In this document: piece by piece, positions 1 through 11,245 of the stretch
How the letters are laid out: each line of letters starts with the position of its first letter
Numbering within the stretch: position 1 is the first letter of the stretch
Assembly (NCBI GenBank): GCA_964492665.1
Contig: CAZBLA010000022.1
Coordinates: 1-11,322, forward strand
DNA: 11,322 nt
Origin: Candidatus Micrarchaeota archaeon
Lineage (GTDB): Archaea > Micrarchaeota > Micrarchaeia > Micrarchaeales > Micrarchaeaceae
Direction of reading: 5' to 3'
Made by a program: the position numbers and the translations under genes
Notes under the pieces: generated by a model
Databases searched by the model: none
What the model saw: the letters and a program-made list of their open reading frames with translations, nothing else
Told to the model about the DNA's origin: nothing

Positions 1-121
1 AGGAAGCCTTTGCCCTCAAAGTACGTTCTGAAGCCGGCATCCGCTGAACGCAATTGGCTGCACGCCGTACTTGTTAAAAAACTAAAGAATTATAGGATTT
101 GTATATGAAAGGTTGTATGCT

Positions 122-415
122 ATGTTGATTGCAAGGGTTGTAGGTTTAGTCGTTTCGACAATAAAACATAAGGCATTAATAGGCAGCAAATTACTGGTTG
201 TTCGAGAAACAGATGCCAATGGTAAACCTACCGGTATGCCCAGAGTTGCTATTGATGTAGTCGATGCCGGTGAGGGTGATTTAGTTTTGGTAGTTGAAGG
301 CTCTGCTGCACGCCAGACTAATTTCACTCGCGGCCAACCCGTTGATAGCCTTATTGTGGGTATTATCGAAACTATACAGCTCAATAGAGAGATAACATTC
401 CGTAAAGGAGTGTAA
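122..415 (+). CDS. eutN: BMC vertex (pentamer) protein, EutN/PduN/CcmL family. ORF track starts at TTG 113; ATG at 122 is more likely.
   Basis: Translation from the ATG at 122 is MLIARVVGLVVSTIKHKALIGSKLLVV...GEGDLVLVVEGSAARQ. This matches the canonical N-terminus and core of EutN/PduN/CcmL (for example CcmL MQIAKVRGTVVSTQK). The length is about 97 aa, typical of BMC-P. An AAAGG motif sits about 9 nt upstream of ATG 122. The TTG at 113 would add 3 residues. Confidence 0.85.
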   Translation: MLIARVVGLVVSTIKHKALIGSKLLVVRETDANGKPTGMPRVAIDVVDAGEGDLVLVVEGSAARQTNFTRGQPVDSLIVGIIETIQLNREITFRKGV

Positions 416-434
416 TTGTGGCAGTTGTAAATAT

Positions 435-1910
435 ATGAGCTATAATACTCATGAAATGCTAAGCGTTGGTATTGATGTGGGTACAACCACAACACAAGTT
501 GTCTTTTCTAAATTGACTATATCCGGAGCCGCACAAACAGGATTTCCTCTTGGCAAATTACCATTGAATCACTATAGACTAACTAATATAATTGATAAAA
601 AGATTATCTACCGAAGCAAGGTGCACTTTACTCCTTTAATCGGGGCAGAAGAAATTAACGCCGTTGCTTTGAAAAAAATTATTCGGCAAGAATATTTAAA
701 TGCAGGCATTGCACCTGATCAGGTAGAGACGGGAGCTGTTATTATTACAGGCGAAACTGCTAAAAAACTTAATGCAGATGCGGTCTTGGATGCTATTTCT
801 ACTTTAGCAGGTGATTTTGTAGTCACGGTAGCTGGTCCTCATTTAGAAGCCATGATATCAGGGTTAGGTTCAGGTGCAGCTGCTTTTTCAAGTGATCATT
901 ATACTACTGCTACCTGTGTAGATATAGGCGGAGGTTCAGCCAATGTTTCCATATTTCGCCAAGGTGGAATGGTAGCAACGGCAGCTATGAACTATGGAGG
1001 TCGCATTATGACAATCAATCAGCGTACTGCTGAAATTGAAAATATTTCCGATCCGGCTAAAACCATTGTCAATTATCTTGGATTACCTTTAGTGGTCGGT
1101 AGCAAAATAAATTTAGATCAATTGCGGTCTTTTACGGAATGTATGGCTGACTTAACAGTTGACTTGATTGAAGGGAAAGTTACGCCTCTATCTGATCAGC
1201 TGATGTTAACCGACCCTTTGCCGATTTCCGGTAAAGGGAGCAAACTCTTTCTGTCGGGAGGTGTTGGATACTGTTTTTATGAGCCAATACCTATTAATTC
1301 TATCAGCGATGCGACTGTTTATGGTGATGTAGGACCGCTATTAGCTGAGTCACTTCGTTTGAACTCAATCATCAAGAGTTATGATATTGAACGTCCAAGT
1401 GAAACCATGCAGGCTACGGTAATGGGAGCTAATTCTCAAACGGTAACTTTAAGTGGTAATACCATATGGGCTGAAAAAAATATTTTACCGATTAGAAATG
1501 TGCCAGTTTTACGTCTTCACTTGCCTGCCACTCTACCATCTCGGCATCAGGTAAAAAAAGCTGCGCAGGATGCGGCCGCTTTATGGGATGTTGCTTTGAA
1601 TGATAATAAATTTGCAATAGCCTTAAATTTACCTGAAGGCCTTAATTATACGTCTATTTGTGAGCTGGCAAACGGTTTGGCGGATTTCGCACTACTGCAT
1701 CTTTTGGGTGGCCAGCCGATGGTTGTTATCATTAATAGTGATTATGCGCGTGTGCTTGGTCAGACAATACATGGAGTGATGCCTAATCTGTCTTTAGTAA
1801 TTATAGATCAAGTTGATTTGAAGGAAGGTGACTATATTGACATTGGACGACCTATATTAGATGGAACGATGGTACCTTTAGCTATAAAAACATTGGTATT
1901 TTACCATTGA
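435..1910 (+). CDS. eutA: Ethanolamine ammonia-lyase reactivating factor EutA
   Basis: N-terminus MSYNTHEMLSVGIDVGTTTTQVVFSKL aligns with the enterobacterial EutA start (MNTRQLLSVGIDLGTTTTQVIFSRL). The 491-aa length and the two actin-like ATPase folds (GIDVGTTTT, VDIGGGSANV) fit EutA. It lies immediately upstream of eutBC. Confidence 0.9.
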   Translation: MSYNTHEMLSVGIDVGTTTTQVVFSKLTISGAAQTGFPLGKLPLNHYRLTNIIDKKIIYRSKVHFTPLIGAEEINAVALKKIIRQEYLNAGIAPDQVETGAVIITGETAKKLNADAVLDAISTLAGDFVVTVAGPHLEAMISGLGSGAAAFSSDHYTTATCVDIGGGSANVSIFRQGGMVATAAMNYGGRIMTINQRTAEIENISDPAKTIVNYLGLPLVVGSKINLDQLRSFTECMADLTVDLIEGKVTPLSDQLMLTDPLPISGKGSKLFLSGGVGYCFYEPIPINSISDATVYGDVGPLLAESLRLNSIIKSYDIERPSETMQATVMGANSQTVTLSGNTIWAEKNILPIRNVPVLRLHLPATLPSRHQVKKAAQDAAALWDVALNDNKFAIALNLPEGLNYTSICELANGLADFALLHLLGGQPMVVIINSDYARVLGQTIHGVMPNLSLVIIDQVDLKEGDYIDIGRPILDGTMVPLAIKTLVFYH

Positions 1911-1947
1911 ACTCTTATATAGATCATTCTACAGTCGGTATTAATTC

Positions 1948-1975
1948 TTGTTTTATTTTTAGCATGCTATATAAT
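1948..1975 (+). promoter_or_regulatory. Candidate sigma-70-type internal promoter in the 143-nt eutA-eutB gap
   Basis: TTGTTT (1948-1953) is followed by TGcTATATAAT (1965-1975), an extended -10-like element. A strong SD (GGGGGAGGAGAAAGGGG) precedes the eutB ATG. The call is by eye only, in AT-rich DNA. Confidence 0.25.
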
Positions 1976-2053
1976 ATAGAAACACTTATTTTTGTGTCAT
2001 TTTCAAATAATGAAAAAGTGTTGAATTTATGGGGGAGGAGAAAGGGGTAATTT

Positions 2054-3421
2054 ATGCTGTTGCGGACTAGGCTTTTTGGCAAAATGTATGAATTCCGAGA
2101 TATTAGAGAGCTTATGAGTAAGGCTAATGAGCCAAAATCCGGTGATGAATTGGCCGGCATTGCTGCTGTATCTGATGCGGAGAGAGTGGCAGCCAAATAT
2201 GTTTTGTCTGAAGTTACTTTAGGAGTTTTAAGGGACAACCCTGCCGTATCATACGAAAAAGACGATGTCACGCGTGTTATTGATGATGCAGTTAACGAAA
2301 CTATATATAACGAAATTAAAAGTTGGACGGTTGGAAGTTTTAGAGAATGGATACTTTCCGATCAAACCACACCTGCCATGATTAGACGAATCAGCAATGG
2401 TATCACAGGGGAAATAATATCGGCAGTCACAAAGTTGATGTCTAACCTCGACCTAATTTACGGAGCTATCAGAATTAGAGTTTCGTCGCATTGTGTTAAT
2501 ACCTCTGGCCTGCCCGGAACATTAGCAAGCCGTTTGCAGCCGAATCATCCCACCGATAGTATTGAGGGCATCCGGGCTGAAATCTACGAGGGACTTTCTT
2601 ATGGAGCAGGTGATAGTGTTATAGGCATTAATCCTGCCAATGATAGCTTGGCAAGTGTTATGAAACTGCTTGATATGACTTATAATGTTATTCAAACATG
2701 GGGAATCCCTACCCAGAACTGTGTATTAGCTCATGTAACTACACAAATGAAAGCTATGGAATCAGGGGCACCTGTAGGCTTAGTTTTTCAAAGTTTGGCC
2801 GGATCGCAAAAGGCAAATGAAAGCTTTGGTATTGATGTCGGTATGATGGACGAAGCATATAAGATGGCGCGGAAATATTGCTGGCCGGAAGGCCCTAACT
2901 ATATGTATTTTGAAACCGGTGAAGGATCAGCTTTGTCGGCCAATGCAAACAATGGCTGGGACCAACTCACTCTAGAAGCCAGAATCTATATGTTAGCTAA
3001 GCGCTGGAAACCTTATCAGGTGAATTCAGTTGTTGGTTTCATTGGTCCTGAGTACCTGTATGATGCCGTTCAAATTATACGTGCCGGTTTAGAAGATCAC
3101 TTCATGGGTAAATTAGCTGGTATCCCTATGGGTTGCGATGCTTGCTACACCAATCATGCTCGTACTAACCAAAATGATATTGAAAACTTGGCCGTATTGC
3201 TCTCTGCCGCCGGCTGCAACTATTTTATGGCCGTACCTATGGGTGATGATATAATGTTGGCTTATCAATGTACAAGCTACCATGATACACCATCGTTGCG
3301 TCAAACATTGAATTTGAAACCATTGCCCGAATTTGAGTTATGGCTGGAAGAGTTAGGACTTATAAAAAATGGCGTACTGACCGAAAAAGCAGGCGATCCA
3401 TCATTTTTCCTGAGTAAATAG
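2054..3421 (+). CDS. eutB: Ethanolamine ammonia-lyase large (heavy) subunit EutB
   Basis: At 455 aa it is near-collinear with enterobacterial EutB (453 aa). MLLRTRLFGKMYEFRDIRELMSKANEPKSGDELAGIAAVS matches MKLKTTLFGNVYQFKDVKEVLAKANELRSGDVLAGVAAAS. A strong SD lies upstream. Confidence 0.95.
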   Translation: MLLRTRLFGKMYEFRDIRELMSKANEPKSGDELAGIAAVSDAERVAAKYVLSEVTLGVLRDNPAVSYEKDDVTRVIDDAVNETIYNEIKSWTVGSFREWILSDQTTPAMIRRISNGITGEIISAVTKLMSNLDLIYGAIRIRVSSHCVNTSGLPGTLASRLQPNHPTDSIEGIRAEIYEGLSYGAGDSVIGINPANDSLASVMKLLDMTYNVIQTWGIPTQNCVLAHVTTQMKAMESGAPVGLVFQSLAGSQKANESFGIDVGMMDEAYKMARKYCWPEGPNYMYFETGEGSALSANANNGWDQLTLEARIYMLAKRWKPYQVNSVVGFIGPEYLYDAVQIIRAGLEDHFMGKLAGIPMGCDACYTNHARTNQNDIENLAVLLSAAGCNYFMAVPMGDDIMLAYQCTSYHDTPSLRQTLNLKPLPEFELWLEELGLIKNGVLTEKAGDPSFFLSK

Positions 3422-3501
3422 AATGACGCGGAGTTTCAATTTTCAGTACAATACAGCTTCATCCGCAAAAAAGGTTCCTAATTTAGCTGAAAAGGATAGT
3501 A

Positions 3502-4413
3502 ATGATTGAAAAAAATGATATTCTCAGTATTGTACAAACAGTCTTAGATGAAATCGATAAACAGCGCAGCGAAGACATATATGATCAGCCTGAGACTTCC
3601 GTGGCCACAGATTATGATAGTAAGGCAGAGGCATTTAAAATTGACCTTCCAGATCCTACCGTTCCTGAATCGCGTCATGCTTCGGGTATAGATCATCCGC
3701 CTAATCCTGAAGGCTTGCAGGCATTAATGGCATCAACTCCATATCGTATCGGAGTGGGAAGGGCTGGGCCTCGCCCTCGCACTGCTGCTATGCTGCTATT
3801 CAGGGCTGATCATGCGGTCACCCAGGATGCACTGATGCATATAGTTGATTCACAAATGCTAACGAAGTTAGGACTATTTTCGGTTAAAAGCCAGGCTAGC
3901 ATAAGTCGTAAGGAATACTTAAAAAGACCTGACTTAGGACGTAAGTTAACTGATGAGGCTAAGCGCATAATTAATGAACGGTGTATAAAAAAACCCGATG
4001 TACAAATTTTTGTCGGTGACGGGCTGAGCGGAGCCGCAATTGACAGTAACCTTCCCAAGATTATGCCTGTTATGGAACAGGGATTCAAAACAGCCGGATT
4101 ATCAATGGGAACGCCATTCTTCGTTAAGAATGCTCGGGTGGGCTTATTAAATGATGTTAACAGTATAATTGATGCCAAAGTATGTGTTATACTTATAGGC
4201 GAGAGACCTGGTCTTGCTCGGGCTGAAAGTATGAGTATTTACATGGGATATCATCCTCAGCCGAACTCAACTGACGCCGATCGCAATGTTATTTGTAATA
4301 TTTATGAAGGTGGATTCAATCCCTTAGAAGCAGGAGCATCTGCGGTTCGACTTGCACAGAGAATGATTGAGTCTCATACAAGCGGAGTTGAATTGAAAGC
4401 AGAGGGCAAATAA
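3502..4413 (+). CDS. eutC: Ethanolamine ammonia-lyase small (light) subunit EutC, with an N-terminal encapsulation-peptide-like helix
   Basis: At 303 aa its position and size fit EutC. The core motif RIGVGRAGPRPRT is present. The N-terminal amphipathic helix MIEKNDILSIVQTVLDEI is followed by an acidic/proline-rich linker, as in EutC N-terminal targeting peptides. An AAAGGA SD lies 8 nt upstream. Confidence 0.9.
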   Translation: MIEKNDILSIVQTVLDEIDKQRSEDIYDQPETSVATDYDSKAEAFKIDLPDPTVPESRHASGIDHPPNPEGLQALMASTPYRIGVGRAGPRPRTAAMLLFRADHAVTQDALMHIVDSQMLTKLGLFSVKSQASISRKEYLKRPDLGRKLTDEAKRIINERCIKKPDVQIFVGDGLSGAAIDSNLPKIMPVMEQGFKTAGLSMGTPFFVKNARVGLLNDVNSIIDAKVCVILIGERPGLARAESMSIYMGYHPQPNSTDADRNVICNIYEGGFNPLEAGASAVRLAQRMIESHTSGVELKAEGK

Positions 4414-4430
4414 AATGGAGTGGAATTAGT

Positions 4431-5087
4431 ATGTCAGTAATGGATCCGATTGTTCCAAAAATATTATCTGTTAGAATTATCCCCAATGTAAACCGCGGTT
4501 TTGCCGAAAAATTAAATTTGCGGTCTAACCAAAGAAGCTTAGGGTTGATAACCTGTAATATTGATGACTCTCTTTATGTGGCACTTGATGAAGGCACTAA
4601 AATGGCAGATGTAGAAGTGGTTTATGCTAAATCTTTCTATGCTGGATCGACTAATGCTTCGGGCCCATTATCCGGCGAAATAATCGGTATTTTTGCGGGA
4701 CCCAATCCGGTTGAAGTAGAATCCGCATTAAATGCTACCATTAGTTATTGCGAGAATGAAGCATGGTTCTATTCTGCTGATGATGATGGCAAAGATGTAT
4801 TTTTTCCACATAATATTTCTAGCACCGGCTCTTATCTTTCCAAAGTGGCCGGTATTTCTATAGGTGAGCCATTAGCATATCTCGTTGCTTGTCCGTTGGA
4901 AGCTACTTATGGAATTGACAAGGCATTAAAAGCTGCCGATGTTAAAATAATGGTTTGGTGGGAGCCTCCGTCGGAAACTAACTTCTCGGGTGGATTATTT
5001 TCAGGTACGCAAAGTGATTGTAAGGCAGCTTGCGCTGCTTTCAGCGAAGCCGTTCTGGAAGTTGTTAGTAATCCTATAAAGTTGTAG
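4431..5087 (+). CDS. eutL: BMC shell protein EutL (tandem permuted BMC domains, pseudohexameric trimer)
   Basis: The 218-aa product matches enterobacterial EutL (219 aa) along its whole length. Shared stretches include RSLGLI, EVVYA+S.YAG, TGSYLS..AGI..G.P.AYLVA.PLEATYGID.ALK.ADV and SETN.S...L.G.Q..CKAAC.AF.-AVLE. An SD GGAGTGG lies upstream. Confidence 0.9.
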   Translation: MSVMDPIVPKILSVRIIPNVNRGFAEKLNLRSNQRSLGLITCNIDDSLYVALDEGTKMADVEVVYAKSFYAGSTNASGPLSGEIIGIFAGPNPVEVESALNATISYCENEAWFYSADDDGKDVFFPHNISSTGSYLSKVAGISIGEPLAYLVACPLEATYGIDKALKAADVKIMVWWEPPSETNFSGGLFSGTQSDCKAACAAFSEAVLEVVSNPIKL

Positions 5088-5111
5088 AGTATTTTTAAGA
5101 AGGAGCTTGAT

Positions 5112-6644
5112 ATGGATAATAACTATGATTTAGATTTGCAGTCGATTCAGGAAGCACGTCGGCTATCCGAAGCTTGTTATAAAGCTCAGCAGCAATTTAT
5201 TGCTTTTAACCAAGAACAGGTTGATAATGTATGCGCTGCCATGGCCGATGCTGCCTATAATGAGTCAAGACGGTTAGGGGAAATGGCTAAGGATGAAACC
5301 GGATACGGTATTGCCCTGCATAAGATGTTGAAGAATCAGCTGGGAAGCCGCAATTTATGGGAATCAATCAAGGATATCAAAACTGTTGGCATTATACGAG
5401 AAGATCGGGTAAAACATATAGTAGAGATCGGATGGCCAATGGGAGTTGTGGCAGCACTTACACCAAGTACTAATCCTACATCTACCACAATGTATAAAAT
5501 TTTGATTTCGGTTAAGAGTCGTAACGGTATTGTTGTAGCTCCGCACCCAGCGGCATATCATTGTTCTCTTGAAACGGCTAAAATTATGTCTAAAGCAGGA
5601 GAGGCTGCAGGCATGCCGCATGGTCTGGTTAGTTGCATGTCAAAGGTTTCACTTGCAGGCACACAGGAACTAATAGGGCATCGAAGGATATCGGTTATTC
5701 TCGCAACAGGTGGTTCAGCAATGGTTAGAGCTGCGCACAGTGTTGGCAAACCGGCCTACGGGGTGGGGCCAGGCAATGCACCCTGCTATGTGGATGGAAG
5801 CGCCGATATCAAGAAGGCTGCCCATGATATTGTTTCCAGCAAGGCTTTTGATAATTCACTTATCTGTGCCACGGAACAATCCATAGTAGTAGATAAGCTT
5901 ATAGCCTCCAAATTACGGTCAGAGATGGAACATATAGGAGCTTATTTTGTAAATCTAAAGCAAAAAACTGCTTTAGCCAATGTTCTTTTTTCACCAAAAG
6001 GAGTTATAAATCGATATAGTGTAGGACAGACTCCTGAATCTCTATCTCAAATGGCTGATATTCAGGTACCTGCCGGTACTCGTATTTTGGTTGTTCCATT
6101 AAACAAAGTAGGTAAAGAGGAGCCACTCTCGCGTGAAAAATTAACTACTGTGCTGGGATGGTATGAAGTTGACGGTTGGGAATCAGGTATAGAATGCTGT
6201 ATGAAACTGGTTAACTTTGGCGGCCGAGGTCATACCATGATTATTCATGCAACTGATAAGAATATAATTATGAATTTCGGTTTAAAAATACCGGTGTTCC
6301 GCATTTTAGTTAACACAATGGGTTCCTTGGGCGCAGTTGGAGGCACAACAAGCCTTTCACCTTCATTAACACTGGGTTCAGGGGGAATCGGTCATTCGAT
6401 AACCGGCGATAATATTACAACAACGCACTTATTGAACATTAAGCGAATTGCTTATGAAACAAAGGCACCACCCAAATTAGCCGTTATAGATACAAAACCT
6501 CAAACGAATTCCTCTAATGATACTTTTAGTGGTGATGGTAACCTAAATATAGAACAGATCAAAGTTGTTGTCAAAGCTGTGGTTGAGGAAGTGCTCCGCA
6601 GAAAAGCTAATATCAATTCTATAAAGAGGAGTGATAATAAATGA
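5112..6644 (+). CDS. eutE: CoA-acylating acetaldehyde dehydrogenase EutE/PduP family, with a C-terminal extension carrying an encapsulation-peptide-like helix
   Basis: The aldehyde dehydrogenase core is present ([21 protein letters not shown]...[19 protein letters not shown]). At 510 aa it is about 40 aa longer than EutE. The N-terminus begins directly in the catalytic core (..[19 protein letters not shown] aligns to the post-EP region of PduP/EutE). The C-terminal tail ...[33 protein letters not shown] resembles the EutE N-terminal EP (DIEQVVKAVLLKM). An AAGGAG SD lies upstream. Confidence 0.85.
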
Positions 6645-6832
6645 ACGCATCTGAAAAGGTCAACCTTGATAACGCTTTATCCGGACATAATAAGGTGAAT
6701 GAGACAAGGCCTAATCGTAAAAAAGTTGAAGCCAAATCTGATGCAACGGCTATGCATAAAAGAGCGGAGGAGAATCAGCTTGAGAAACCAAGCGAGTATG
6801 CTAAAAAATATACGAAACAGAAGGAGGAATAC

Positions 6833-7138
6833 ATGGATATTCAAATGATTGCACTGGGAATGATTGAAACGAAAGGATTAGTTGCTGCTATTGAGGCTTC
6901 CGATGCCATGGTAAAATCAGCGAACGTACGTTTAATTGGCAGTGAGTATACCGGAGGTGGTTATGTAACTGTTATGGTAAGGGGCGATGTAGGCGCAGTC
7001 AAGGCTGCCACAGATGCCGGAGCTGCAGCAGCTAAACGCGTAGGCGAACTGGTTTCAGTTCATGTTATACCACGCCCTCATTCTGACGTGGAGATGATAT
7101 TACCTCATAAAACCAAAGGAAGTTATGATGAGCATTAA
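6833..7138 (+). CDS. eutM: BMC-H hexameric shell protein (EutM/PduA type). Short form from ATG 6833; an in-frame upstream start at 6641 would add a 64-aa charged N-terminal extension.
   Basis: [87 protein letters not shown] is a near-canonical PF00936 BMC domain (EutM: [79 protein letters not shown]). A strong SD AAGGAGGA lies 6 nt upstream of ATG 6833. The frame stays open back to ATG 6641, which overlaps the eutE stop as ATGA and has its own SD AAGAGGAG. Confidence 0.85.
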
Positions 7139-7168
7139 TCAGAAGGTTAAAGCCTAAAGATAATAATT

Positions 7169-7723
7169 ATGAGGCGCTTTTTCTCAGCAGCGGATATACG
7201 TAGTTTGGCAGAAAAAGATGGATGCCGATATTTGCTGCTTGCTTCTACTGATATAATTACTCCTGAAGCTTTAGATATAGCCCATGAAGTAGGTATTCAA
7301 ATTCATAGGAAGGGGGATATACCTGGCTGTGTTTCGCTGCCACCCTTAATAGGTCGGAGTACAGCTCCGGGTACACCTATTATTTTAATTAAATCAAATT
7401 CTATCCGCCTAAAGCCTTTTGCCTACGATGTGGGTCATCCGGAGATGAACATACAACTGTCTGATATAATTACTGCGGCTAACAGATCACCAATGGCAGC
7501 TGGATTTATGACGTGGAATAAAGGATTCTTTCCCTGGACTCTTGATTACTATGAAATTGACCTGGTTATTGATGGTCAACTTGAAATACGGACCGAAGGC
7601 CGAAATATTATAGGCAATAAGGGGGATGTGATCTATATCCCTAAAGGAAATAGTATTTTTTTTGGTTCACCAAGCTATGCTAAAACTTTCTATGTTACCT
7701 TTCCAGCTGAATGGGAATCCTGA
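7169..7723 (+). CDS. eutQ: EutQ-like protein: N-terminal EutQ-type module, linker, and a C-terminal cupin domain (EutQ family acetate kinase / BMC-associated cupin)
   Basis: The C-terminal roughly 90 aa (MTWNKGFFPWTLDYYEIDLVIDGQLEI...GDVIYIPKGNSIFFGSPSYAKTFYVTFPAEW) has the cupin signature typical of EutQ. The N-terminal FSAADIRSLAEKDG....DIITPEALDIAHEVGIQI resembles the start of Salmonella EutQ, as recalled (..LITANDIRAAHARGEQ...IITPEAREVAELLGFTI). The SD is weak (AAAGA). The gene lies between eutM and eutJ. Confidence 0.7.
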   Translation: MRRFFSAADIRSLAEKDGCRYLLLASTDIITPEALDIAHEVGIQIHRKGDIPGCVSLPPLIGRSTAPGTPIILIKSNSIRLKPFAYDVGHPEMNIQLSDIITAANRSPMAAGFMTWNKGFFPWTLDYYEIDLVIDGQLEIRTEGRNIIGNKGDVIYIPKGNSIFFGSPSYAKTFYVTFPAEWES

Positions 7724-7737
7724 AGATGATTATAGTT

Positions 7738-7767
7738 TTGGTTAGTATTTAAAAAGCTGTATATAAT
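7738..7767 (+). promoter_or_regulatory. Candidate sigma-70-type promoter in the 146-nt eutQ-eutJ gap
   Basis: TTGGTT (7738-7743), an 18-nt spacer, then TATAAT (7762-7767). The call is by eye only. It would drive eutJ and the downstream genes. Confidence 0.3.
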
Positions 7768-7869
7768 GTTAATACATAAGCAGTAGACAGCTATTGAATA
7801 TTTTGAATCGCCGCAATGATGTTTGTGCTATACGATAAACTTATCACGCGGTTATTATTATGAGTAAGT

Positions 7870-8805
7870 ATGAATCCGAAACTTAATGCATTATTGGCAA
7901 AGGTCGCGGCAGTTATGCATAATGACCATGATAATATTTCTATGCCTCAGCAGCTATCCGATAATTCTAACTATTGCGACAGTAAAATTTTAACCAACCC
8001 TCTTGCATTGTACAGCCGTGGCTTATCCTCTGACAAGCTTCAAAACCGAGTTCATGTTGGCATTGATATAGGAACGGCATATACCGTTTTAATTGTACTT
8101 GATGAGCGTATGCAACCTATGACCGGCGAATACCGTTTTGCTCAGTTTGTACGTGATGGTTTAGTGGTCGATTCACAAAAAGCAATAAGCATGGTGCAGA
8201 AACTAAAACATATAGCCGAAAATAGATTGGGTTTTAAGCTTAGTTCGGCTGCTACCGCTTATCCTCCCGGCGTATTGTTGACTGAAATCAAAGCTAAACA
8301 ATATGTTGTAAATTGTGCAGGTTTTGAATGCGATCAGTCCATTAATGAGCCTACAGCGGCTAACCTCGTATTACAAATAAAAAATGGGGCAATAGTTGAT
8401 ATTGGAGGAGGTACTACCGGTATTGCTGTTGTCAATGATGGACATGTTGTGTATACTGCAGATGAGCCTACGGGAGGTACGCATTTTTCTTTGGTTATTG
8501 CCGGAGCATTGAACATAGAGTTTGAAAAAGCAGAGCTTCTAAAAAAAGATCCAAAACAGCATAGCAAGATTTATCCTCTTGTGAAGCCGGTAATGGAAAA
8601 GATAGGTACTATCGTTGCAAACCACTTATTGGACCAAGATGTTAGTACCATATATTTGGTAGGTGGTACATCTTGTTTCATTGGCATAGGTAAAGTGATC
8701 CAGAAGGTAACAGGCATAACGACTATTATACCCGCTTATCCATTGTTTATTACACCATTAGGTGTAGCAATGTTTAATGCAAATAATGATAAAGCATCCT
8801 ATTAG
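7870..8805 (+). CDS. eutJ: EutJ, actin/Hsp70-fold chaperone-like protein of the EUT microcompartment. The start is uncertain (alternative in-frame ATGs at 7915 and 7942).
   Basis: VHVGIDIGTAYTVLIVLD, INEPTAANL, VVDIGGGTTGIAVV, ADEPTGGTHFSL and IYLVGGTSC match EutJ motifs (E. coli: LGVDLGTCDVV, LDEPTAVA, VVDIGGGTTGIAIV, ADEATGGHHISL, LWLAGGSC). The 311-aa ORF is about 30 aa longer at the N-terminus than typical EutJ. The N-terminus MNPKLNALLAKVAAVM is an amphipathic helix. Confidence 0.85.
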   Translation: MNPKLNALLAKVAAVMHNDHDNISMPQQLSDNSNYCDSKILTNPLALYSRGLSSDKLQNRVHVGIDIGTAYTVLIVLDERMQPMTGEYRFAQFVRDGLVVDSQKAISMVQKLKHIAENRLGFKLSSAATAYPPGVLLTEIKAKQYVVNCAGFECDQSINEPTAANLVLQIKNGAIVDIGGGTTGIAVVNDGHVVYTADEPTGGTHFSLVIAGALNIEFEKAELLKKDPKQHSKIYPLVKPVMEKIGTIVANHLLDQDVSTIYLVGGTSCFIGIGKVIQKVTGITTIIPAYPLFITPLGVAMFNANNDKASY

Positions 8806-8988
8806 ACATAAGATTAAAGTTACATTAAAATTATGAGGATCAAGCGATATGATAACTTGAGCCGCCAGCTGCATTACTGAATTTGAACAAAATTGTACAT
8901 GAAGGAATACGGCTAATTTAGTGTAGCAATAGTACATATTGCGAGCAAAGAGTAGATATATAAATTATTATCAAGAGGAGGAATATAT

Positions 8989-9621
8989 ATGGTTAATAAT
9001 TCACACCCTTTTCAATTACGGGCATATTGCTATTTAGATCGAACCCAGCCGCAGTATTCTTCTTTCATAGGGACCGTTACCCAAGGTGATTTACTAGTAC
9101 AGGGTATGGCCTCTCTATACATAGAAGTTGCCCCCGGCAGTGATGTTTTTAATTTAGTAGATATTGCTTTAAAGGCCACTGAGGCTAGACCAGGTGCTCA
9201 GATTGTTGAGCGTGAGTTCGGCATGTTTGAAGTTCACTCACAATCACAGGAAGCTGTGCTGGAAACCGGGCGTACTGTGCTGAATCGCCTTCAATTAAAA
9301 GAAACAGATAGGGTAAAACCTAAAGTCACTTCAGCTCAATTTATAACTAACGTTGACCCCTACCAAGCTCAACTACTTAATCGTTTTCGTAGAGGAAGCA
9401 TGCTGCTTGCAAGTGATACTCTTTTAGTTCTTGAAATAGCTCCTGCAGCTTATATAAACCTTGCTGCGAATGAGGCTGAAAAAAGGGCAAATATCAAATT
9501 GATTCATGTTTCCGGTGTAGGTCGTTACGGCCGAATGTGGCTGGGTGGGACGGAGTCTGAAATGTCCACAGCTAAAGCGGCAGCTATAGCAGCAATTGGA
9601 AATATCGAAGGAAAGGAATAA
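8989..9621 (+). CDS. Divergent tandem BMC-domain-like protein (putative BMC-T shell or shell-associated protein), 210 aa
   Basis: Two repeats of about 90 aa each align by eye to the canonical BMC-H pattern ([30 protein letters not shown]...GGG....[15 protein letters not shown]). Repeat 1 is LYIEVAPGSDVFNLVDIALKATEARPGAQIV....GMFEVHSQSQEAVLETGRTVL. Repeat 2 is VLEIAPAAYINLAANEAEKRANIKLIHVSGVGRYGRMWLGGTESEMSTAKAAAIAAIG. The second repeat appears to lack the final beta-strand. No PduL motifs (RHIHLS) are present. A strong SD AAGAGGAGG lies 6 nt upstream. The call rests on motif similarity only. Confidence 0.45.
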   Translation: MVNNSHPFQLRAYCYLDRTQPQYSSFIGTVTQGDLLVQGMASLYIEVAPGSDVFNLVDIALKATEARPGAQIVEREFGMFEVHSQSQEAVLETGRTVLNRLQLKETDRVKPKVTSAQFITNVDPYQAQLLNRFRRGSMLLASDTLLVLEIAPAAYINLAANEAEKRANIKLIHVSGVGRYGRMWLGGTESEMSTAKAAAIAAIGNIEGKE

Positions 9622-9701
9622 TAAGTCCAAATATACCGTATCACAACTATTATTCAATGACGATAACAATATAATTATAATTTAAAAAAGGAGAATATAC
9701 C

Positions 9702-10160
9702 ATGAAAACATTTTATACTGAACAAGATATCAGTAATATGCATTCAAAAGGTATGGTTGAAATAGAGATAGATGATGATACGGTACTAACAGATATAGCT
9801 CGAGAGAAAGCCATTGCTGTAGGATTGCACATTAACCAGGTTAAGAGGATATGCGATCATGGAAAAAAGCTTGAGACAGATATATCTCCTACTTGTATTG
9901 CCAATAAAACACTATCACTGCCTCATGATTCTACTATCTCTTCCTACAATGAATCAATGTTATCACCTGTATCTTTATCGGATCGTAATGTCCTGGATTC
10001 AAAACTAATTAACGGTATTAAATCCGCTGTTATTGCTAAACTTGGCAATGATATTGCAATGGACAATGGCCTTTTAGAACAGATAATTTCTACTGTCCTA
10101 TTACTTTTCAATTCTAAGTCTCAATCTAATCAATTAATAGACTTTTTGCAAAACTCTTGA
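9702..10160 (+). CDS. Hypothetical BMC-associated protein: EutQ-N-terminal-like module, Ser-rich linker and two encapsulation-peptide-like amphipathic helices; no catalytic domain recognized
   Basis: A strong SD AAAAAGGAGA lies 7 nt upstream. Residues 3-45 (TFYTEQDISNMHSKGMVEIEIDDDTVLTDIAREKAIAVGLHI) align with the N-terminus of the eutQ product in this same window (FFSAADIRSLAEKDGCRYLLLASTDIITPEALDIAHEVGIQI). Residues 98-115 (LDSKLINGIKSAVIAKLG) and 123-136 (GLLEQIISTVLLLF) resemble BMC encapsulation peptides (compare EutE DIEQVVKAVLLKM). It is the last gene of the co-directional cluster. Confidence 0.6.
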   Translation: MKTFYTEQDISNMHSKGMVEIEIDDDTVLTDIAREKAIAVGLHINQVKRICDHGKKLETDISPTCIANKTLSLPHDSTISSYNESMLSPVSLSDRNVLDSKLINGIKSAVIAKLGNDIAMDNGLLEQIISTVLLLFNSKSQSNQLIDFLQNS

Positions 10161-10396
10161 AAAGAATATATCATACGATGATAATTGGAGAGCCTGAAAT
10201 TATCTCGAATGATTTCTATGAAGCAACAATAAAGAGGATAGAAAGCACATAACAAGGCGTTTAACCTTAACCATTATTCCGCTGTGCTCCATAGCGGCAG
10301 ATAAACTTGGTTGTCCCGACTTCGCCCATGTATTTGAATAAACCCTTATTCTGCGGGCTTTCTTCTTTTAAGTTAGGCACTGCAAATCTTATAAAC

Positions 10397-10440
10397 GGAT
10401 CTACGGAGAGGGACATCCATTAACCTGTAGATCTTTCTAA
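10397..10440. terminator. Hairpin plus a short T-tract in the convergent intergenic region; possible intrinsic terminator serving either strand
   Basis: The inverted repeat gGATCTAC (10397-10404) / GTAGATCt (10427-10434) forms a 7-8 bp stem with a 22-nt loop. It is followed by TTTCT on the plus strand. On the minus strand the same hairpin is followed by CGUUUAUAAGAUU. The stem is weak and the signal ambiguous. Confidence 0.25.
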
Positions 10441-10533
10441 TATCAACAGAGGCAGCAGCTGAGGGTGGAATGAATCTGTCTTTGCTTAGATGGTGAACTA
10501 TTAAGAGAGAAGAGGCTTTATCAACAGCCTGTA

Positions 10534-10851
10534 TTATCTTGAACCCTTGCAAAACTCAACATTTTGCTTTTCAACATATTCGTCGGAAGGGTCAAGTTTT
10601 TCATCTATTTTATAGAGATAAACCAGCACCCTTGCTATAGCTTGGTATAAATCGGGTGGTATTTGGATATTCACATCAAGTTTGACAAGTTCTTCGACAA
10701 GGGCACTGTTTTCTATTACAGGTATATTATTCTCTCTCGCTACGGCTCTAATTCTTTGAGCTGCTTGTCCTGAGCCGGCTGCGACAAGCTTTGGAGCATC
10801 CATACTTTTTTTGTATAGAAGTGCGGCTGCTTTTTTATCCTTTATAAGCAA
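10534..10851 (-). CDS. Small FlhB C-terminal-domain-like protein (YlqH/FhlB-domain family, type III export-apparatus switch protein paralog); apparent TTG start
   Basis: KKAAALLYKKSMDAPKLVAAGSGQAAQRIRAVARENNIPVIENSALVEELVKLDVNIQIPPDLYQAIARVLVYLYKI matches the FlhB cytoplasmic C-terminal fragment pattern (AVAL+YD....APKVVAKG.G..A..I...A.E..IP+.E...L...L......IP..LY.AVA.IL.FVY). There is no in-frame ATG; the first codon is TTG at 10851. It overlaps the upstream ORF by 17 nt. Confidence 0.65.
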   Translation of the reverse strand: MLIKDKKAAALLYKKSMDAPKLVAAGSGQAAQRIRAVARENNIPVIENSALVEELVKLDVNIQIPPDLYQAIARVLVYLYKIDEKLDPSDEYVEKQNVEFCKGSR

Positions 10852-11245
10852 AATTTCCCAGCCCTCTCAACGTAATTGATAATACAAACCCGCTGTCTTT
10901 TGTTTTATTGCCATTGGTAAGTACTGCAGGAATATCTCGTGTAAACATCGAAAGATCTACCCCCCAGCATGATTGTTTTATAACCAGATCAAATTGATTG
11001 TTTGAAAAAAAACGGTTCATTATATCGTAGTCGTTTGTAGTTGACATGCTAAATGATTTTGATATCGGCAAAGCAAGTTCCGTATTTATCTGTTCCGATT
11101 GTTTTTCAAAATTGCTGTCTTTGCTGAGTTCATAGCCTATCTTTGCCGTAACTTTACCGATATATGATATATCACTGCTGAGATCGACAAGTTGATGTTT
11201 GTAATAATCATAATGCAGCCTAAGATTATAGTTGATTTTACTCAT
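10835..11245 (-). CDS. Hypothetical protein (136 aa), upstream partner of the FlhB-C-like gene; function unknown
   Basis: It is an open frame in an AT-rich context. It is translationally coupled at both ends: TGAATG with an upstream partial ORF, and a 17-nt overlap with the downstream gene. It has no obvious SD and I recognized no family motif. Confidence 0.4.
   Translation of the reverse strand: MSKINYNLRLHYDYYKHQLVDLSSDISYIGKVTAKIGYELSKDSNFEKQSEQINTELALPISKSFSMSTTNDYDIMNRFFSNNQFDLVIKQSCWGVDLSMFTRDIPAVLTNGNKTKDSGFVLSITLRGLGNFAYKG

Follow-up and report, generated by a model that had tools for sequence, protein, structure and literature searches.

What kind of protein is encoded at 8989..9621 (+), where a 210-codon reading frame lies at the end of an ethanolamine-utilisation gene cluster and is followed by one further small gene? 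An earlier note on this DNA, made from the letters alone, had described the product as a double-BMC-like protein of unclear class, with canonical domain topology, a 40-residue N-terminal leader and an apparently missing C-terminal strand. Profile, structure and locus comparisons indicate that the gene very probably encodes a BMC-Tdp shell protein, the current nomenclature name for the CcmP/CsoS1D class (PMC8217296), of a EUT3-type ethanolamine-utilisation microcompartment.

The gene and its neighbours

The reading frame is present in the ORF list of the window (the whole 11,322-nt stretch of DNA analysed, to which all coordinates refer) as 210 codons plus stop, on the forward strand and starting with ATG. 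The translation signal and spacing that had been reported for it were confirmed: a purine-rich, Shine-Dalgarno-like AGAGGAGG lies at 8974..8981 (+) with its GGAGG 7 nt 5' of the ATG, a strong site of the gene's own, and 183 nt separate the EutJ stop at 8805 from the ATG at 8989. This gap is AT-rich. A promoter and terminator scan of positions 8700-10600 returned promoter-like sites at 8803-8831 and 8825-8853, which match at consensus level only and are no evidence of a separate promoter in the 183-nt gap; with Rfam, zero matches at gathering thresholds were obtained for the entire window. When a large protein collection was searched with the 210-residue product, 7726 homologues were retrieved at E ≤ 0.001. 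The best 120 of these are 73-93% identical to the query, and mean column identity is 80% in the alignment of those 120 and the query (121 sequences). The gene is clearly real and strongly constrained, and its product is 100% identical to a public NCBI protein (P0121), encoded on a 12,168-bp contig.

The window begins 112 nt 5' of the first recognisable gene of the cluster, so that genes further upstream fall outside it. That first gene encodes EutN, the BMC-P pentamer protein (113..415, +; PF03319, E 5.4e-27), and is followed on the same strand by those for the reactivase EutA (435..1910; PF06277), the ethanolamine ammonia-lyase proteins EutB (2054..3421; PF06751) and EutC (3502..4413; PF05985), and EutL, a single-layer permuted trimer protein of the BMC-Tsp class (4431..5087; TIGR04502, E 7e-99). 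An EutE-like aldehyde dehydrogenase comes next (AldDh; 5112..6644, +; PF00171), with a C-terminal helix that, as read from the translation, resembles an encapsulation peptide. The EutM-type BMC-H protein occupies a mechanical ORF at 6641..7138 (+), in which PF00936 matches residues 71-146 (E 1.8e-29, 101.9 bits); its true start is likely the ATG at 6833, which stands behind AAGGAGG. EutQ (7169..7723, +; PF06249) and EutJ (7870..8805, +; matches to actin/Hsp70-like ATPases) precede the Tdp gene, and an ORF for a 152-residue protein, orf152 (9702..10160, +), lies directly 3' of it. A FlhB-C-terminal-like gene and an ORF without assigned function follow orf152 on the opposite (-) strand.

The gene order is thus EutN-A-B-C-L-E-M-Q-J-Tdp-orf152, an operon-like cluster with a single gene each for a BMC-P, a BMC-H, an EutL-type Tsp and a Tdp protein. 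The BMC catalog of 2021 describes EUT3 loci as composed of one each of BMC-H, BMC-P, EutL-type Tsp and Tdp together with EutABC, and lists them mostly in Actinobacteria, Chloroflexi and Spirochaetes (PMC8217296). The locus has this EUT3-type composition, with EutA, EutB and EutC and one gene for each of the four shell protein types. A phosphotransacylase (PTAC; PduL/Pta) and an alcohol dehydrogenase were looked for in the window and in the regions flanking three related loci (L001, L002 and L004), and neither was found.

Assignment to the CcmP/CsoS1D family

The NCBIfam model of beta-carboxysome CcmP, NF053796, matched the 210-residue protein with E 2.7e-75 and 252.6 bits, residues 9-210 aligning to model positions 4-205 of 213. 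Nine distinct matches, with E values from 6.6e-65 to 6.8e-33, were obtained among PDB sequences. CcmP of Synechococcus elongatus PCC 7942 (4HT5, 5LSR) was matched over its full length at E about 1e-64 (best 6.6e-65), with 52.5% identity across 202 residues and no gap, and the Haliangium ochraceum BMC-T proteins HO-3341 (47.3% identity) and HO-5816 were likewise matched over full length at E about 1e-54. CsoS1D followed (7DHQ and 3F56; E 1e-46 and 1e-43), and the mycobacterial RMM proteins MSM0275 (E 8.7e-41) and MSM0271 were also among the matches. Structure comparison agreed: with an AlphaFold2 (AF2) model as query, the first 33 PDB matches in Foldseek were all BMC-Tdp (E 3e-20 to 1.5e-14), followed at about 1e-5 to 1e-4 by PduB and EutL, which form permuted trimers of a single layer, with PduT at rank 46 (E 7e-4). 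On these alignments the protein belongs over its full length to the CcmP/CsoS1D class, i.e., it is a BMC-Tdp, and it is a homologue of HO-BMC-T2/T3. Its class is therefore no longer unclear, and the suggestion of an unrelated alpha/beta protein that mimics the BMC pattern is not supported. PduL, which had been set aside from the start, is ruled out, as PF06130 is absent at E ≤ 1.

The search with the general BMC domain model PF00936, which had been proposed as a check, was less informative. A partial match was obtained, confined to the second half of the protein (residues 147-205 on profile positions 4-62 of 75, ending 5 residues short of the C-terminus), and its 17.3 bits stay under the 24.5-bit gathering threshold, because the PF00936 model fits permuted domains poorly. 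Taking the lack of a significant PF00936 hit as grounds for refutation, as the earlier note had suggested, would nearly have misfired.

Relatives of known structure and function differ from the 210-residue protein in instructive ways. CcmP likewise consists of tandem permuted BMC domains and serves in the carboxysome, whereas the context here is catabolic ethanolamine use and the presumed cargo is not RuBP/3-PGA. CsoS1D and HO-BMC-T2/T3 share the fold, with an architecture of double trimers and gated pore in these relatives, and HO T2/T3 have been seen in an intact shell; at its N-terminus CsoS1D carries about 50-70 additional residues that have no counterpart here (its chain 78-278 corresponds to query residues 7-206). 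EutL and PduB (BMC-Tsp) and PduT (BMC-Ts) are also tandem BMC trimers, the first two also permuted, but they are single-layer proteins with other pore chemistry, and their similarity to the 210-residue protein is weak (fold E 1e-5 to 1e-3, TM about 0.33-0.37; EutL models E 0.02-0.04). The locus, moreover, has its own EutL.

Three other identities were weighed against a BMC-Tdp of an ethanolamine microcompartment. CcmP is the top match in both NCBIfam and the PDB, as would be expected if the protein were beta-carboxysomal CcmP itself and the locus related to carboxysomes. The score of 252.6 bits, however, falls short of the 340 bits set as equivalog cut-off for NF053796, and the protein is therefore a CcmP homologue rather than carboxysomal CcmP; the neighbours are eut genes, ccm and Rubisco genes are absent, the closest relatives reside in EUT3 and SPU6 loci, and a histidine of the CcmP ligand pocket, His18, is replaced by tyrosine. 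Locus context and the 340-bit cut-off together rule this identity out for practical purposes, with a negligible chance left to it. Nearly as improbable is a standard tandem BMC-T of the PduT kind, in which a metal cluster at the pore would serve electron transfer. Both proteins are tandem BMC of about 185-210 residues and PduT does appear as a weak fold match, but TIGR02526 (eut_PduT) gives no match to the 210-residue protein, BMC-Tdp structures score far better in Foldseek, the domain order is permuted, and conserved cysteines are absent from the pore loops: the sole cysteine conserved in at least 90% of sequences, C14, lies in the N-terminal strand. PduT-type BMC-Ts was rejected on these grounds. 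The earlier suggestion of an unusual, possibly pore-forming BMC-T thus pointed in the right direction, but the likeness to PduT did not hold. It is also very unlikely, if slightly less so, that a degenerate shell-derived protein which no longer tiles has become a cargo adaptor or lumen scaffold. The sub-threshold, one-sided PF00936 match could be read in this way, but such a match is expected with permuted domains, and the high mean column identity (80% in the 121 sequences), the retained gating residues and the full-length match to the shell-incorporated HO BMC-T2/T3 all speak against degeneracy, and with it against the degenerate shell-like cargo adaptor that had been considered. The assignment as BMC-Tdp is accordingly retained below.

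Both domains appear circularly permuted

The protein is built in tandem, as had been seen from the letters: residues 21-49 match residues 124-152 in register (hhalign, E 0.0024), and the AF2 model contains two beta-alpha-beta-beta-alpha cores. The N-terminal domain (9013..9303, +; residues about 9-105) aligns without gaps to CcmP residues 4-100. The C-terminal domain (9304..9618, +; residues 106-210) is modelled with pLDDT 73-96 and has its PF00936-like core at residues 144-204. To look for permutation in the sequence alone, a BMC-H profile was made from 59 EutM homologues and duplicated in tandem; compared with it as profiles, the two halves gave matches of only 14 columns, at E > 0.04, the profiles being too shallow (Neff about 1.3).

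In the modelled second domain a strand (residues 112-119) and a helix (124-133) precede the core, which runs as strand 144-151, helix 153-167, strands 171-177 and 180-187 and helix 189-204, after which the chain ends. A counterpart of PF00936 positions 63-75 is absent at the C-terminal side. By the AF2 model, then, the second domain is circularly permuted, a strand and a helix having moved from behind the core to its front. The C-terminal strand that had been taken as lacking sits before the domain 2 core, and the reading of both halves as canonical, non-permuted BMC-H does not survive this order of elements. EutS, a permuted single-domain protein, aligns with the model over nearly its full length (Foldseek, TMt 0.66).

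For the first domain the argument comes from CcmP and the literature rather than from the model. Residues 1-40 had pLDDT below 50 in both AF2 runs (alignments of 28 and 121 sequences), since all usable homologues are at least 73% identical. In an ungapped alignment of residues 9-40 with the N-terminus of CcmP, which is ordered, 16 of 32 positions are nevertheless identical, and CcmP and CsoS1D are described as circularly permuted tandem BMC proteins whose trimers stack pairwise into a barrel (PMC5853799, PMC8217296). What had been called a 40-residue leader would therefore be the displaced strand-helix pair of domain 1, a domain that is probably permuted in the same manner as domain 2. The combination of a weak PF00936 match, an apparent leader and an apparently absent last strand is a hallmark of permuted BMC domains and not of degeneracy. 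The main value of the present analysis lies in this corrected reading of the topology; that the protein is shell-like had been detected rightly. The 2021 BMC catalog had already reported this protein class, its presence in the rare EUT3 type of locus and its relationship to SPU6, and an identical sequence is public.

Conservation of the gate and other residues

Opening and closing of the CcmP pore depends on Glu69 and Arg70, a pair in the beta-hairpin of the N-terminal domain (PMC5853799, PMC13316943). With the offset of 5 relative to 5lsr, their counterparts in the 210-residue protein are E74 and R75 (codons GAG CGT at 9208..9213, +), which are invariant in the 121 sequences, and by alignment the Glu-Arg gating pair is kept. 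Four arginines, R11, R132, R134 and R182, are common to CcmP (R6, R127, R129 and R177) and HO-3341; by offset arithmetic they probably include the electrostatic path of CsoS1D R57, R178 and R229 discussed in PMC13316943. Two other positions differ from CcmP. The ligand-pocket residue His18 corresponds to Tyr23, a tyrosine in at least 90% of the clade, and Ser174 of the C-domain pore loop corresponds to Arg179, invariant in the clade. Because the pocket histidine is replaced, ligand control of the gate may differ from that in CcmP.

Related loci and kinship with SPU6

The locus was compared with a set of 80 related genome loci. The full gene order of the window recurs in seven of them, all from MAGs: L001 (Caldilineaceae), L002-L005 (deltaproteobacterial/Desulfobacteraceae MAGs), L027 and L079. 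Across these seven, Tdp identity to the window is 71-80% and EutB identity 75-83%. A further type of locus, comprising 43 of the set, has DERA and/or RpiB and is devoid of EutABC. One of the related loci, L036, encodes by Pfam a GntR/UTRA regulator, RpiB, DeoC, AldDh, BMC-H, Tdp, a small hypothetical protein and BMC-P, which is the SPU6 layout of PMC11585597.

In the catalog, AldDh and Tdp of EUT3 are closest to their SPU6 counterparts (PMC8217296). The window AldDh is 57-69% identical to AldDh proteins of EUT3- and SPU6-type loci, and the closest Tdp relatives come from Chloroflexota and deltaproteobacterial MAGs, where they lie in loci of the EUT3 and SPU6 types. In a rough neighbour-joining tree the window Tdp, on a rather long branch next to the EUT-context group, clusters with those of L001-L005 apart from the 43 SPU6-context sequences; the Tdp proteins of L027 and L079 branch elsewhere, so that five of the seven eut-adjoining Tdp proteins group with that of the window. 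The AldDh identities and this rough Tdp tree suggest that both window proteins stand phylogenetically beside their SPU6 counterparts, as in EUT3.

The nearest described system is accordingly the EUT3 Tdp (Tdp_ultramarine_EUT3, e.g., ANT_07270 of Anaerolinea thermophila; PMC8217296), of about 208 residues compared with 210 here, in loci that have the same shell inventory as the window and, like it, combine EutABC with an SPU6-related AldDh bearing a C-terminal extension. The genome of the window differs in base composition, having low GC (40%), and the locus has AT-rich spacers of about 180 nt, which its GC-rich relatives lack. The SPU6 Tdp proteins of Chloroflexi (PMC11585597) are 67-74% identical to the window Tdp, and SPU6 loci share with the window the local order AldDh, BMC-H, (EutJ), Tdp, small hypothetical protein as well as the absence of PTAC; they have DERA and RpiB instead of EutABC, however, and no EutL.

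A candidate gated conduit for cofactors

The solved relatives suggest how such a protein could work in the shell. Three Tdp chains would form a pseudo-hexameric trimer that tiles into a shell facet, and two trimers would meet face to face to give a barrel, as in CcmP, CsoS1D and HO T2/T3. Each end of the barrel could be open to about 13-14 Å or shut by Glu-Arg salt bridges between neighbouring chains, the whole acting as an air-lock. Bulky cofactors and products would most likely pass through this gated pore. The main candidates are CoA/acetyl-CoA and NAD+/NADH, with ATP (for EutA) and adenosylcobalamin (for EutBC) as further possibilities; ethanolamine and acetaldehyde would use the smaller pores of EutL and EutM. 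Both stacking and gating are extrapolations from relatives at 40-52% identity.

The proposed traffic follows from the content of the locus. A CoA-acylating aldehyde dehydrogenase uses CoA and NAD+ stoichiometrically, and both are far too large for hexamer pores. With PTAC and alcohol dehydrogenase absent from the cluster, CoA and NAD+ would not be recycled inside and would have to cross the shell, and the gated pore is thus most likely their route. This agrees with earlier proposals: SPU loci without PTAC typically encode a BMC-Tdp, through which exit of acetyl-CoA has been proposed (PMC11585597), and for Tdp clades outside the carboxysomes "large cofactors" have been suggested in the catalog (PMC8217296). 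A PTAC or alcohol dehydrogenase that is encoded elsewhere in the genome and yet encapsulated could weaken the argument. EUT3 shells are minimal, with one H, one P, one Tsp and one Tdp, and are for that reason convenient for testing pore traffic without internal cofactor recycling.

The double-layered arrangement has one competitor of some weight, namely that the protein belongs to the CcmP/CsoS1D family but forms a single-layer trimer like EutL and PduB, with no air-lock chamber. This is prompted by a family member, MSM0275 (5l39), whose PDB title speaks of a fused permuted hexameric protein and not of a double ring, as against MSM0271, which is titled double-ringed; stacking may consequently not hold family-wide. 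MSM0275 is a more distant match, though, and the closest solved relatives (CcmP at 52.5% and HO BMC-T2/T3 at 47% identity) show double stacking both in crystals and in the HO shell when intact. A single layer is therefore considered unlikely, though clearly less so than the three other identities discussed above, and pairwise stacking of trimers remains the preferred arrangement.

orf152 and a possible two-gene module

An orf152 homologue is encoded immediately 3' of the Tdp gene in 58 of the 80 related loci (blastp, E < 1e-3). For orf152 itself a Pfam family was not found. Its N-terminus holds a 46-residue motif with faint resemblance to the N-terminus of EutQ, which is visible at profile level only (PRK15457 of NCBIfam, E 5e-4; a purpose-built HMM, E 0.003 among 13 sequences), a direct BLASTP comparison with the EutQ of the window giving zero alignment. 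It is tempting, but at present rather doubtful, to regard Tdp and orf152 as a conserved two-gene module of EUT3 and SPU6 and, with Tyr23 and Arg179, to suppose that this Tdp lineage was retuned from sugar phosphates to CoA/NAD. orf152 might anchor cargo on the double-ring trimer or act as a regulator of it; the middle of the protein is a proline-rich linker, and its C-terminal amphipathic segment resembles an encapsulation peptide.

The gene downstream of the Tdp shell protein gene

The gene for the permuted tandem shell protein (Tdp, 8989–9621, + strand) is followed directly on the same strand by an open reading frame of 152 amino acids (orf152, 9702–10160), whose homologue adjoins the Tdp gene downstream in 58 of 80 related loci (blastp E < 1e-3). 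Homologues of orf152 occur in ethanolamine clusters of the EUT3 type and sugar-phosphate clusters of the SPU6 type alike, and no Pfam family was matched by the protein. Its N terminus carries a conserved 46-residue motif (KxFYTERDIEDM..GV..L.V.DDVVLT.LA.EKA..LG), accompanied by a proline-rich linker and, at the C terminus, by an encapsulation-peptide-like segment (DL..RI..AV.ARLG..D..LLD.II.RVL). The N terminus of EutQ bears only a faint match to the orf152 N-terminal motif, and BLASTP returned no alignment between orf152 and the EutQ of the window.

Helices resembling encapsulation peptides were also found on two enzymes of the cluster. The C-terminal ∼60 residues of the aldehyde dehydrogenase (AldDh; 5112–6644, + strand) consist of a low-complexity linker and a terminal amphipathic helix, consistent with the encapsulation peptide described at the C terminus of AldDh from SPU6-type loci (PMC11585597). 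EutC (3502–4413) possesses a similar helix, DILSIVQTVLDEIDKQ, at its N terminus, ahead of the Pfam domain that begins at residue 71.

Pocket, pore, and family assignment of Tdp

The Tdp of the window differs from CcmP, its β-carboxysome relative, at one pocket and one pore-loop position. The ligand-pocket residue His18 of CcmP is replaced by Tyr23, a tyrosine that 90% or more of the clade retains, and Ser174 on the C-domain pore loop is replaced by Arg179, which is invariant in the clade; the Haliangium ochraceum BMC-T protein HO-3341 has alanine at the latter position. These substitutions hint at a ligand or charge preference different from that of CcmP. The Pfam version applied to Tdp lacked PF27545 and yielded only a weak PF00936 match, whereas precomputed annotation assigns PF27545 to every Tdp homologue among the matches listed; newer Pfam releases thus seem to contain a dedicated model for the permuted family.

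Gene starts, spacers, and cluster content

The EutM-type BMC-H gene was called mechanically as an open reading frame of 165 amino acids (6641–7138, + strand) with a Lys/Glu-rich N-terminal extension of 64 residues. Since AAGGAGG precedes an internal ATG at 6833, with the spacing found ahead of Tdp, and this ATG leads immediately into the BMC domain, the real protein probably starts at 6833 and comprises ∼101 residues, judging from these sequence features. With a start at 6833, the AldDh gene would be followed by a spacer of ∼188 nt (6645–6832), one of two AT-rich intergenic spacers of ∼180–190 nt. The other (8806–8988) lies upstream of the Tdp gene; in a GC-rich syntenic deltaproteobacterial locus (L002), the reading frames of EutJ and Tdp overlap. 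GC content is ∼32% around 8701–9000 and 40% over the window, and promoter-like hexamers at 8803–8853 are of consensus level only.

Neither the cluster (1–10160) nor the flanks inspected at three syntenic loci (L001, L002, and L004) contain a gene for a phosphotransacylase (PduL/Pta), an alcohol dehydrogenase, or EutT. The deltaproteobacterial loci carry a TRAP transporter (DctQ/DctM) immediately upstream of EutN, and in the Caldilineaceae locus L001 an inserted gene for a PduO-type cobalamin adenosyltransferase separates EutQ from EutJ.

The eut cluster ends with orf152, and the genes beyond converge on it. They encode a 105-residue protein (10534–10851, − strand) whose match to FlhB/YscU is confined to the C-terminal part (PF01312 positions 262–334), and an overlapping 136-residue reading frame (10835–11245, − strand) of no family. 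The FlhB/YscU-like gene suggests a host that is flagellated or bears a type III secretion system.
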